The notes under the pieces: generated by a model
Databases searched by the model: none
What the model saw: the letters and a program-made list of their open reading frames with translations, nothing else
Told to the model about the DNA's origin: nothing
Translations under genes and position numbers: made by a program
Shown: one piece after another, positions 41,789-45,020 of the stretch
Layout: every line of letters starts with the position of its first letter
Numbering within the stretch: the stretch's first letter is position 1
Source of the DNA: Myxococcales bacterium
GTDB lineage: Bacteria > Myxococcota_A > Polyangia > Polyangiales > DASUME01
Reading direction: 5' to 3'
DNA length: 64,000 bases
Assembly (NCBI GenBank): GCA_047601445.1
Contig: JASGJH010000001.1
Location: forward strand, 800,001 to 864,000

Positions 41789-41969
41789 CGCGCGCCTCGC
41801 GGTCGCCGGGACGCTGCCATGCTCTGGGTGCTCGCAGGTGTTACGCCGTGCGGTGAAAACCGGGCTCCGCGAGGGCTCGGAGCCGGCGGATCACTTGCGT
41901 CCGCGGCGGTTCTCTGGCACTGAACATGTGCGCCCGTAGCGGTCGCTGTTCTCGTGCGAAGGATTTCCC

Positions 41970-42482
41970 GTGTCTGCCCTGCCCATTCCCCAACCGTGCA
42001 ACGCATCGCGTCAGGCCGTGCAGGAGTACGCCGAGGCTGTCGCCGAGAGTGTCGGCTACACACCGGGTACCGGGGTGGAGAGCGTGGTCGCGCAGCTGGG
42101 AGGTCGGCTCAAGTACCTGAGCCTCGACGAGTCTCGCCAGCATGAGGCCGATGGCTCGCTGGTGGTGCACGGCCCAGGCGACTTCGAAATCAGCCTCTCG
42201 GCCGTGACTGGTGCCGTGCGGGATCAGTTCACCATCGCGCACGAGCTCGGCCACTACTTCCTGCACAGTCAGGGGGGCAAGCAGCGCATCCGCGCCGAGC
42301 GCTATGGTTCCGGACGCGTGGAGTGGGAGGCCAACTGGTTCGCGGCGGCGTTCTTGATGCCGTCCGAGCTCTTCACTGAGGAAGCCGAGCGAAACCAAGG
42401 TGATGCGGAGCGAATCGCCACCCGCTTCTTCGTTTCTTCCGCGGCGGCCGAGGTGCGGCTCAAGTCTCTCGGGTTGCGATGA
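41970..42482 (+). CDS. ImmA/IrrE-family (Peptidase_M78/DUF955) Zn metallopeptidase without HTH
   Basis: RDQFTIAHELGHYFLH, EWEANWFAAAFLMP, IATRFFVS..AAEVR; AAGGA RBS before GTG. Confidence 0.92.
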   Translation: MSALPIPQPCNASRQAVQEYAEAVAESVGYTPGTGVESVVAQLGGRLKYLSLDESRQHEADGSLVVHGPGDFEISLSAVTGAVRDQFTIAHELGHYFLHSQGGKQRIRAERYGSGRVEWEANWFAAAFLMPSELFTEEAERNQGDAERIATRFFVSSAAAEVRLKSLGLR

Positions 42483-43444
42483 CCCTGGGCAGCGCCGACT
42501 CCCGGTCGCGTAGGTCCTGCGTTCGCCTCTTCATGTCCGTGGACCTGATCGGATCCACTGCCTTCAAGAACCGCATCGGAGCGGCCGACGAGTACGCGGG
42601 CGGCCATCCTTGGATCGGCGAGTTCGCCCGCTTCTACGCCTCGTTCTCGAACTTCCTGGTGCGCGGCGCCAACCCGCTGCTCAAGCAAGAGGGGGCCGAG
42701 CCCATCTTGTTCAAGGCCATCGGCGACGAACTGGTGTTCTCGGCGTTGGTGAAGAGCGGGGAGCACATCGCGCTGCTCATGGAGGCCTTCCGTGACGCCC
42801 TGTGTGCCTACTATCGCCAGCACCTGGTGGGTACGAGGCTCGGGCTCAAGGGCACGGCGTGGCTGGCTGGGTTTCCGATCAACAACGCCGAGGTGCGGCT
42901 GCCCAATGGGGCGGTCGACTTCATCGGTCCCTCCATCGACGCCGGCTTTCGCGTAGCCAAGTTCTCGTCGCTGTCGATGATCGCGCTCTCGGTGGACCTG
43001 GCGCTGGTGCTGGCGTTGGTGCGTCCCAATCGCTTCGAGTTCGTGTTCCATGCGCTCGAGTCCATGAAGGGCGTGCTGGGGGGCAATCCCTATCCCATCT
43101 TCGGGCTCGATTCCGGGCTGCGTACGGCCGAGGAAGAGCTCACCGGCGAGGGCCCCACCAATGTGAGGTCCGAGAAGGTGAGCGCCTACGCTACGCGGTT
43201 CTTCGCGGAGCTCGCTCCGTCATGGCTGTTCGCGCCCTACTTGAGCGACGACGAGCGCTTCAAAGCCAAGCCCGCGCACCACGATGAAATCCTGGCTCTG
43301 TGGGAGCGCGAAGAGGCCAAGACCCAGGTGGGACTCGATGGCGCGGAAGCGTCCCTCGGAAGCGTGGACACCGGCGCAGCCGACGCACGCTTGTTGGCCG
43401 AGGCCATCCGCATCAAGGCGCAGCCCGCGCAGCGGAACGATTGA
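42479..43444 (+). CDS. Divergent class III nucleotide cyclase-like protein
   Basis: LFMSVDLIGST, FKAIGDELVF and DFIGPSIDAGFRV map onto class III cyclase motifs; ATGA overlap with the peptidase. Confidence 0.7.
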   Translation: MTLGSADSRSRRSCVRLFMSVDLIGSTAFKNRIGAADEYAGGHPWIGEFARFYASFSNFLVRGANPLLKQEGAEPILFKAIGDELVFSALVKSGEHIALLMEAFRDALCAYYRQHLVGTRLGLKGTAWLAGFPINNAEVRLPNGAVDFIGPSIDAGFRVAKFSSLSMIALSVDLALVLALVRPNRFEFVFHALESMKGVLGGNPYPIFGLDSGLRTAEEELTGEGPTNVRSEKVSAYATRFFAELAPSWLFAPYLSDDERFKAKPAHHDEILALWEREEAKTQVGLDGAEASLGSVDTGAADARLLAEAIRIKAQPAQRND

Positions 43445-43473
43445 GGGCTGTCTCAGGGGCTCTGGGTCTGGGT

Positions 43474-43598
43474 CGTACGCGTGCCCGTGCCCGTAAACGA
43501 TCTCTTCGGCTCCTACGCTCGATCAGTGTGCAGGTCGAACCGGACGAGCGTTCGCTCAACGGCTGGGAGATTCGCGAACGGGCACGCGCACGCGCACG
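43474..43598. repeat. Hexamer-armed inverted repeat between convergent genes
   Basis: CGTGCCCGTGCCCGT..GATCTC left arm; GAGAT..ACGGGCACGCGCACG right arm. Confidence 0.65.
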
Positions 43599-43631: not shown

Positions 43632-45020
43632 TCAGGGCCCGACGTTCTCCACCTTCACGCCGTTCACGATATTCGACACCCAGGTGATCATCTTCACGTT
43701 GTTGAACGTGGCATCCTCGATCTTCACGTTGCCCGGCAATACGTTGGTGAGCCAGGTGTGCTGGTCGGTGGCGGGATAGTAGGTGCCGAAGTTCTTGTAG
43801 CTCTTCACCGCCGTCCGGAAGTCGAGCAGGCCCTTTTCGAAGACGTCGGGCGGCACCTTGTCGACGATGGCGGTGCCGGCGCAGTTGTTGTTTCCGGCCC
43901 CAAAGAAGCCCGAGATGATGCCGTCGTGGTTGGCCTCGATGAGGCCCGAGAGGCGGTCGCTGAACGTGGACACCAGGTACACGCCGTAGTCGAACATGAA
44001 GTCGTCCTTCTTGGGGCAGTGGCTACCGCAGTCCTTGAGCACCGACTGATCGAGCCCCCAGTAATCCACCATGCGCTTCTGCAGGCAGGGCGGCACCACA
44101 GCGCTGGTCTGGGGCGGACCCGAGTCGTCGATGAGGATGATCTTGTTGTTGGGGAAGGCGCGCTGGAAGAGCACGGCCGTGGCGGCCGAACCGAAGCCGC
44201 CAGCGCTGATGCCCGTGAGCAGCACGCGGTCGAGGCTGGGGAAGGTAGGCACGATGCGCTGCAGATAGGCCTGCAGGTTGAGGTACCCGACGAACTGTTC
44301 CTTCGGGTACAGGTCGGTGACCTTGGAGTTGGCCTTGGTGCCTGCGTGGATGTCGCCGGTGCAGTAGGGCACGTAGACGAAGTTCCAGTCCTTGAGGGGA
44401 TTGTCCGTCCACTTACGGTTGAAGATGCCGCCCGTCTGCTCGCCCTTGGAGGCGATGGAGGCGGGGTTGGCGGCACAGGTGACGTTGTCGAAGCAGGCTC
44501 CGCCGCCTTCGAGGAAGATCATCAGGTCCTTGGACTTGGAGTTCAGGCTGATGCCGATGCCCGCCGTAGATCCGTCGCGGCACTTGGTGCCGGGGAAGTC
44601 CACCCAGGTCCACTTGAGATCGTCGGCCTTCAGGGGCTGGCCGTTGGTGGGGAAGGGCGTGAGGCCGTACTTGTCGAGCGGGTTCGTCGAGGGCTTGGTG
44701 CCCGCATCCGAGTGGCCGGGGTTCGTGCCGGCATCGACATCATCGCCGTCCCCGTCTCCCGTGCTGTCTCCATCGCCCGTGGTGTCGCCGTCTCCCGTGC
44801 TGTCTCCATCGCCGGTGGTGTCGTCGCCATCGCCGTCCCCGTCGCCATCACCATCACCATCACCATCACCGTCTCCATCGCCGTCTCCATCGCCGTTGGC
44901 TGGGTCGACGTAGCCCGACGTGGGGTTGGCAGGGTCCTCACCGCAGCCGGTGTTTCCGACGACGACGGAGGAGAGGGTAAGCAGCAGAAGAAGCCTACGA
45001 GAGCGGTCAAGGTGAGACAT
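43632..45020 (-). CDS. Pectin acetylesterase-family (alpha/beta hydrolase) lipoprotein
   Basis: Lipobox NTGC, long GD repeat, CRDGS, FLEGGGAC, YVPYCTGD, nucleophile GISAGG, DDSGP. Confidence 0.88.
   Translation of the reverse strand: MSHLDRSRRLLLLLTLSSVVVGNTGCGEDPANPTSGYVDPANGDGDGDGDGDGDGDGDGDGDGDGDDTTGDGDSTGDGDTTGDGDSTGDGDGDDVDAGTNPGHSDAGTKPSTNPLDKYGLTPFPTNGQPLKADDLKWTWVDFPGTKCRDGSTAGIGISLNSKSKDLMIFLEGGGACFDNVTCAANPASIASKGEQTGGIFNRKWTDNPLKDWNFVYVPYCTGDIHAGTKANSKVTDLYPKEQFVGYLNLQAYLQRIVPTFPSLDRVLLTGISAGGFGSAATAVLFQRAFPNNKIILIDDSGPPQTSAVVPPCLQKRMVDYWGLDQSVLKDCGSHCPKKDDFMFDYGVYLVSTFSDRLSGLIEANHDGIISGFFGAGNNNCAGTAIVDKVPPDVFEKGLLDFRTAVKSYKNFGTYYPATDQHTWLTNVLPGNVKIEDATFNNVKMITWVSNIVNGVKVENVGP

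Follow-up and report, generated by a model that had tools for sequence, protein, structure and literature searches.

What would a cell, or a mobile element, gain from coupling a zinc peptidase of the ImmA/IrrE type to a protein with the landmarks of a class III nucleotide cyclase? This question is raised by two overlapping genes in the window, a stretch of 64,000 nucleotides from a Myxococcales genome, which an initial annotation, made from the letters alone, had put forward as an undescribed defence or toxin-antitoxin (TA) module. We examined the two proteins, their pairing across genomes, viruses and metagenomes, and their neighbours, and weighed what the pair may do.

An M78 peptidase and a cyclase-fold protein

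On re-reading, both open reading frames, their motifs and the ATGA overlap were as first annotated (Table 1). An AGGA (41960-41963) lies ahead of the GTG start of gene 1. The database gene call for gene 2 begins at Met19, but the upstream ATG within the overlap is the better start, since F18 and the strand at residues 14-24 are conserved. Neither a sigma-70 promoter nor a convincing terminator was found at the gene pair, and its GC and GC3 are similar to those of the flanks. A PA14-domain protein is encoded upstream and a pectinacetylesterase-family protein, convergent with the pair, downstream. A REP-like element of ~44 bp lies just 3' of gene 2 (43460-43505); the stretch downstream of gene 2 has 27 BLAST matches in the source genome and copies in congeners. 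A GD-repeat low-complexity linker in the downstream lipoprotein (about 44720-44900) likewise recurs in dozens of genes of the source genome and its congeners.

Table 1. Positions, in the window, of the two genes and of the parts assigned to them
Feature	Position	Strand	Remarks
Shine-Dalgarno-like GAAGGA	41958..41963	+	6 nt 5' of the GTG start; read from the sequence
Gene 1, 170-aa M78 (ImmA/IrrE/CapP-type) Zn peptidase	41970..42482	+	GTG start; Pfam, PADLOC and fold matches
Gene 2, 321-aa ORF	42479-43444	+	Overlaps gene 1 by ATGA
Class III nucleotide cyclase-fold domain, gene 2 residues about 9-214	42479..43120	+	Model, Foldseek, VIA-align
Family-specific folded C-terminal module, gene 2 residues about 212-285, candidate regulatory lid	43112..43333	+	pLDDT about 90; E218/P253/P265 conserved
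Low-confidence charged tail of gene 2 (286-321) and stop	43334..43444	+	pLDDT 51-64

Gene 1 matches Pfam PF06114 (E 1e-22) and PADLOC capP (E 9e-24), and its model (pLDDT 96) has its best fold matches in CapP (7t5t, E 4e-7) and PprI/IrrE, in agreement with its annotation as an HExxH peptidase. The motifs AHELGH (residues 90-95) and EWEANWFA (residues 118-125) hold the zinc site, H91-E92-H95 (42240-42254) with E118 (42321-42323) as third ligand, and H91, E92, H95 and E118 are invariant in 110 paired peptidases. HExxH with a downstream Glu and the IrrE-like fold are the marks of family M78, and by its residues and modelled fold gene 1 qualifies as an intact M78 peptidase of the IrrE/CapP type. 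An Xre HTH at the N terminus and a GAF domain are both missing from the model of this 170-aa protein. The view that gene 1 has no HTH thus holds for its N terminus but not for helices 132-166, which, from the span of the alignment, would form an HTH-like subdomain such as CapP has after its peptidase domain. A further proposal, that the cyclase signals to the protease, finds no support in a 170-aa peptidase without a GAF domain.

No Pfam, PADLOC or NCBIfam model matches gene 2, in keeping with its proposed place outside named systems; it does match PHROGs phrog_18024, to which no function is assigned there. PDB sequence searches with gene 2 or its profile returned nothing significant. Its structural model (pLDDT 88.6) has the class III cyclase fold predicted for it (Foldseek E 3e-10, with agreement from the Atlas), and VIA-align superposes it on CyaB with Z 16.7 and rmsd 2.3 over 178 aligned positions. 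Across comparisons, Z is 12.6-13.6 against Pycsar cyclases and 16-16.7 against housekeeping cyclases.

The motifs SVDLIGST, KAIGDE and DFIGPSIDAGFR were all found, and the catalytic set comprises D22 and D83 for metal, K79 and D147 as base-specifying residues, R158, and D154 at the Asn position; the register of D147 (base-specifying Asp), D154 (Asn site) and R158 (Arg) comes from an HMMER alignment to Rv1900c that is weak (E 1.1). Within a redundant alignment of 322 rows (first hits, representatives and loci together), D83, E84, D154, G156, F157 and R158 are invariant (322/322 aligned rows) and D22 (317/318), K79 (321/322) and D147 (318/322) nearly so. The replacement of the transition-state Asn by Asp beside a retained Arg, seen at first in this one sequence, is therefore a property of the whole family (322/322), and F157-R158 occurs in 110/110 paired members. 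Lys and Asp are the adenine-specifying pair in class III cyclases, and the transition-state Asn is described as dispensable or absent in Rv1900c, which is active (PMC4886424). From K79 and D147 we infer that gene 2 uses ATP, cAMP being the likely product, and the invariant Asp154 and Glu84 may signal other chemistry.

The low-complexity tail of the initial annotation is real as a charged tail, but a folded and conserved module that the annotation had missed comes before it. E218 is conserved in 81/110, P253 in 99/110 and P265 in 98/110 members, and the Atlas holds no named or usable fold match for the module. Past position 268, the 110 members run on for a median of 54 aa, with 20% D/E and no conservation of sequence. 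A dedicated search gave no longer fused forms of gene 2, weak evidence given that Nudix-like and guanylate-kinase fusions appeared in genome searches. We dropped the idea of a cysteine switch at the N terminus, as C10 is present in only 34/110.

Pairing, mobility and neighbourhood

A scan of species genomes yielded 244 relatives of gene 2, the best 80 of which were analysed. The peptidase lies directly upstream on the same strand in 76 of these best 80, with a gap of at most 35 nt in 74/76 pairs and the same 4-nt overlap in 12, and it is upstream in 16/16 loci on viral contigs, one of them cut by the contig end. The converse test started from the peptidase: of 70 metagenome loci found with it, 8 were too short, and the cyclase is directly downstream in 58 of the 62 that could be assessed, while one of the other four has a cyclase 730 nt further on. 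The pairing is near-obligate. Orphan peptidases occur in L109 and L135, and four of the best 80 genome loci depart from the rule. The partner in L075 and L080 is degenerate, with HExxH gone (probability 93%), and the cyclase there lacks the tail; the two are a sphingomonad pair of one lineage (L080:7419-8993) whose cyclase keeps all catalytic residues. In L011 the same contig holds an intact peptidase at a distance of about 64 kb, and the L002 genome, a MAG of unknown completeness with an intact cyclase, has no peptidase match. Clustering of all ORFs in the best 80 of the 244 loci gave no third conserved gene, and no conserved HTH gene sits beside the pair in them. Covariation between the two proteins (110 paired rows) reached a top z of 9.2 against shuffled maxima of 6.3-7.4, the remainder staying at shuffle level.

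The gene 2 family comprises 2,285 clusters (50% identity) at E 0.001 and 1,329 at E 1e-30, from many phyla. It is absent from 40 relatives (0/40), nine of them congeners (0/9; 72-99% complete), and congener DNA gives only paralog-level matches to the window locus. Family members are present in 4/400 genomes of the phylum: three have the peptidase, two as cyclase-Nudix-like forms and one as a guanylate kinase fusion, and the fourth is a short solo form. The fusion, a single case (L168:823-2535, minus strand, genome G044), joins the cyclase to a full guanylate kinase domain (PF00625, E 1e-47) behind the usual peptidase. The solo member (L169:1507-2280, genome G046) has the same GDE and D-GFR signature, lacks the C-terminal module and the peptidase, and stands beside DsrE-like genes. 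Mobility is supported by this patchy distribution and by copies in phages, prophages and plasmids: the pair is Orf2-Orf1 of the temperate phage LE1, is found on five plasmid records, once within a defence-rich region, and in prophages occupies moron-like sites among tail, head, lysis or integrase genes (72 proteins scanned). Most chromosomal copies lie outside prophages.

We scanned the two nearest genes per side at 74 of the best 80 of 244 loci (6 near-duplicates dropped), 267 genes in all, with 91 genes from 20 random stretches of the source genome as control; defence genes were counted by hand at E 1e-10 from a list drawn up after the hits were visible. Defence-type genes numbered 22 of 267, at 17 loci, against 1/91 (Fisher p 0.013), mobile-element genes numbered 10, and 24 loci had one kind or the other. 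Counted by loci, the contrast persists for defence and mobile genes together (p 0.02) but not for defence alone (17/74 against 1/20, p 0.11), so that the expected enrichment of defence neighbours holds by genes and not by loci, and the support is moderate because the control is one genome. Among 42 selected neighbours examined with PADLOC, genes of Gabija, type I/IIG/III R-M and PD-T4-3 were confirmed. No defence or mobile gene is found among the four nearest neighbours at 50/74 loci, nor, in kind, at the window locus, and about two thirds of loci, the window locus included, lie amid housekeeping genes. At 10/74 loci (L053, L060, L078, L024, L059, L070, L029, L034, L064, L069) the nearest neighbours include genes for DNA repair or topology (uvrA, uvrB twice, uvrC, umuDC, disA/radA-like, mutS, recQ, gyrB, topo IV), which may hint at co-expression under DNA damage.

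PycTM-type genes and named systems

No effector had been seen next to the pair at the outset. This is correct for the window locus, which has no PycTM or PycTIR effector beside it, and it holds across most of the clade. A minority of loci, however, have PycTM-type genes (a name that follows the pJV1-spdB3/PycTM usage of the Pucsar preprint) directly beside the pair. Such genes occur there at 5/80 genome loci (best 80 of 244), 0/16 viral and 2/70 metagenome loci; of the 103 loci flanked by 700 nt or more on each side, 6 have such a neighbour. About 93% of clade loci lack an adjacent effector. The gene is upstream on the same strand in L027 and L071, divergent in L125 and convergent in L040, L063, L072 and L152. 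In a FastTree tree these loci are spread over separate branches, and they show three orientations and at least four different arrangements. For some of the TM genes beside the pair, the best score comes from CBASS 2TM models. Since a profile built from the adjacent genes found PycTM-type genes in only 8/1,000 control genomes (4/400, 1/300 and 3/300), direct adjacency is far beyond chance.

Effectors are more regular in a sister clade with a longer, cyclase-Nudix-type form. A search with a sister-clade alignment gave 41 viral loci, the long forms of which make up six prophage lineages, and five of the six carry a PycTM-type gene (L231, L237, L239, L240 and 24 near-identical Clostridioides prophages, with L238 lacking it); five short Leptospira forms among the 41 have no TM gene. 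Phage phiC2 (L217, NC_009231.1:29538-32203) and L242-L265 are Clostridioides temperate phages in which peptidase, long cyclase and convergent PycTM-type gene stand between lysis genes and integrase; the long cyclase is annotated as putative Nudix in phiCDHM19. With PycTM-type effectors next to the pair at a minority of loci and in most sister-clade prophage lineages, we favour a signal generator over a plain toxin.

Matches elsewhere in the genome are rarer. Ten of 79 carrier genomes have a PycTM-like match, five adjacent and five distant (one of these an HD-like fusion), and 69/79 have none detectable, for which reason a PycTM acting in trans as the general output was rejected. The frequency of distant genes, 5/74 against 0.8% of controls, is suggestive, with genome size, scoring caps and profile bias as confounders. 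The source genome itself has an orphan PycTM-like gene 4.8 Mb from the pair (G000:C1:5683845-5684480, PADLOC E 5.5e-21), missed by Pfam PF18967 and recovered by our custom profile and PADLOC. It is enclosed by 357-bp direct repeats, 97% identical (G000:C1:5683381-5685340, L219:7381-9340), of an internally inverted repeat family of about 800 bp found at several sites in the source genome, and looks like a small repeat-flanked cassette; no member of the gene 2 cyclase family lies near it.

The pair shares with Pycsar and Pucsar the class III cyclase fold, a patchy and mobile distribution and, at a minority of loci and in most sister-clade prophage lineages, a PycTM-type effector. It differs from Pycsar (PycC with PycTM or PycTIR) in that its constant partner is an M78 peptidase rather than an effector, and in that its residues would select adenine (Lys/Asp), where Pycsar makes cCMP or cUMP. 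PADLOC PycC matches 0/110 members at E 0.01, and the five subclades of the Pucsar preprint, compared without its Table S1, list no M78 partner. CapP-CapH, IrrE-DdrO and ImmA-ImmR share the M78 fold and intact zinc site, CapP and PprI/IrrE being the best structural matches; unlike them, the pair has no GAF domain and no conserved HTH repressor, and the sole constant neighbour is an enzyme. CapP is described as latent, activated by ssDNA and regulating an immune system, and it cuts CapH at F82/R83, between F and R in the dimerisation helix (bioRxiv 2022.04.27.489752). RosmerTA is also a two-gene system with a Zn-peptidase first, and RmrA models match the peptidase domain of gene 1, but these are 357-400 positions long and matched only at about positions 180-300; RmrT gave no hit, and the partner in our pair, the cyclase-fold protein of gene 2, has no PADLOC match. 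RmrA is reported as a Zn-peptidase antitoxin, and the rmrA deletion could not be transformed (bioRxiv 2022.05.11.491447). The PAACC cNMP-cyclase systems, compared by their description only, likewise have a diverged cNMP cyclase, for which a TA-like effector role is proposed, both in gene dyads and in R-M operons, but the partners described are ParA, PanA, TIM-B, M1E1E6-HxH and HSP90/radical SAM, with no M78 dyad (bioRxiv 10.64898/2026.10.19.760177); none of these partners is conserved in the best 80 of our 244 loci. A literature search that left aside the figures and supplements of the PAACC and Pucsar preprints (2026) and most subscription journals turned up no account of an M78 peptidase paired with a cyclase. 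The pair is a real, widespread and apparently unnamed module of known parts in a new wiring, which resembles Pycsar or a TA pair and belongs to neither.

A proposed protease-gated alarm and its alternatives

The reading we prefer, tentatively and with somewhat less than even confidence, is that the pair is a conserved mobile cassette working as a protease-gated cNMP (probably cAMP) alarm. By analogy with CapP and IrrE, the peptidase would be latent until infection or DNA damage and would sense ssDNA. Once active, it would cut the cyclase, with the C-terminal module or the tail as the most likely site. We take the cyclase for the likeliest substrate since nothing else accompanies the peptidase constantly and there is no conserved repressor. 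The released cyclase would make a cyclic mononucleotide, probably cAMP, leading to cell arrest or death. Its output would run through a PycTM-type pore in genomes that encode one, which is adjacent at a minority of loci and may act in trans in the source genome, and elsewhere through host cNMP receptors or nucleotide drain. The pairing, the lack of a conserved third gene or HTH, the conserved active sites, the recurrent PycTM-type and defence neighbours and the moron-like prophage sites all argue for an alarm, as does the nearest structure, CapP, insofar as the analogy holds. Furthermore, activation by the peptidase is the favoured direction, since effector recruitment implies an on-demand signal, the cyclase has a dedicated C-terminal module, and intact cyclases without a working peptidase (L002, L075/L080) would be easier to tolerate if the peptidase activates. 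The reading is weakened by the question of output, given how many loci lack an adjacent effector and how many carrier genomes lack any PycTM-like gene, by the majority of loci without defence or mobile neighbours, and by a fold no closer to Pycsar than to housekeeping cyclases. It is also weakened by F157-R158, the dipeptide at which CapP cuts, because a cut there would destroy the enzyme and not release it.

Stated in its most far-reaching form, which we regard as doubtful though worth serious attention, the pair may represent a class of its own within immunity by cyclic nucleotides. A protease of the IrrE type, sensing ssDNA or damage, would directly cleave and activate a dedicated adenylate cyclase, with cAMP or a non-standard adenine nucleotide as the alarm; the two-gene core would act by itself or together with PycTM-type pores, encoded in cis or by unlinked orphans such as the repeat-flanked gene of the source genome. 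To our knowledge, how Pycsar-type cyclases sense infection is largely open, and this wiring of a protease to a signal enzyme would, if true, supply a sensing mechanism for them. The characterised M78 proteases compared here are described as acting on repressors or as antitoxins; the wiring would widen the substrates of IrrE-type proteases to enzymes and might place cAMP among the immune signals, in a large family that spans many phyla and the cultured temperate phages LE1 and phiC2.

A strong alternative, though less likely in our estimate, is a TA pair following the logic of RosmerTA, in which the cyclase would be toxic by default, the peptidase would be an antitoxin that binds or cuts it (for example between F157 and R158), and phage shut-off or inhibition of the peptidase would release the cyclase. 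Peptidase-first order in all pairs and the sufficiency of two genes agree with it, as do the precedents of RmrA and of the TA-like toxins proposed among PAACC cyclases. So do the orphan peptidases, the split pair of L011 with both genes intact, and the retention in L080 of a partner without HExxH, as expected of a binder. The universal F157-R158 equals the dipeptide that CapP cuts within a dimer helix, but R158 is the catalytic Arg and its conservation needs no cut site. Against the TA pair, the repeated PycTM-type neighbours imply a diffusible signal, the cyclase is intact in the L002 genome, a MAG of unknown completeness that gave no peptidase match, and there is no Xre HTH for autoregulation.

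We consider improbable a guard with altered chemistry, a constitutive non-standard nucleotide or target modification (a Panoptes-like decoy) whose loss through phage enzymes or peptidase cleavage would be the trigger: the invariant D154 and E84 are atypical, a Nudix-like domain occurs in the sister clade and some neighbouring TM genes resemble CBASS 2TM models, but K79/D147/R158 form a canonical cAMP set and, at the majority of loci, which have no effector, loss of a signal would have no obvious output. More improbable still is a mobile-element regulator with no defence role, in which an ImmA-type anti-repressor peptidase would act on a repressor encoded elsewhere and the cyclase would tune host cAMP or lysogeny: COG2856 proteases are said usually to cut Xre repressors, and those of LE1 and phiC2 are cited as Xre-associated (PMC2701414), a CI-like repressor adjoins the pair in LE1, repressor-family genes lie near L083, L093 and L095 and HTH genes on a Leptospira plasmid, but no HTH is conserved beside the pair (best 80 of 244 genome loci), most chromosomal copies are outside prophages, peptidases of this clade go with the cyclase, and other prophages hold the pair among tail, head or lysis genes.

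Variants with additional upstream genes also occur. On a Mycolicibacterium plasmid (L195:4617-7002), two tandem ImmA/IrrE peptidase genes precede the cyclase, beside RES-Xre, JAB and TcmP genes, and in L005, too, extra genes, an HTH and a CapP-sized M78 gene, lie upstream.
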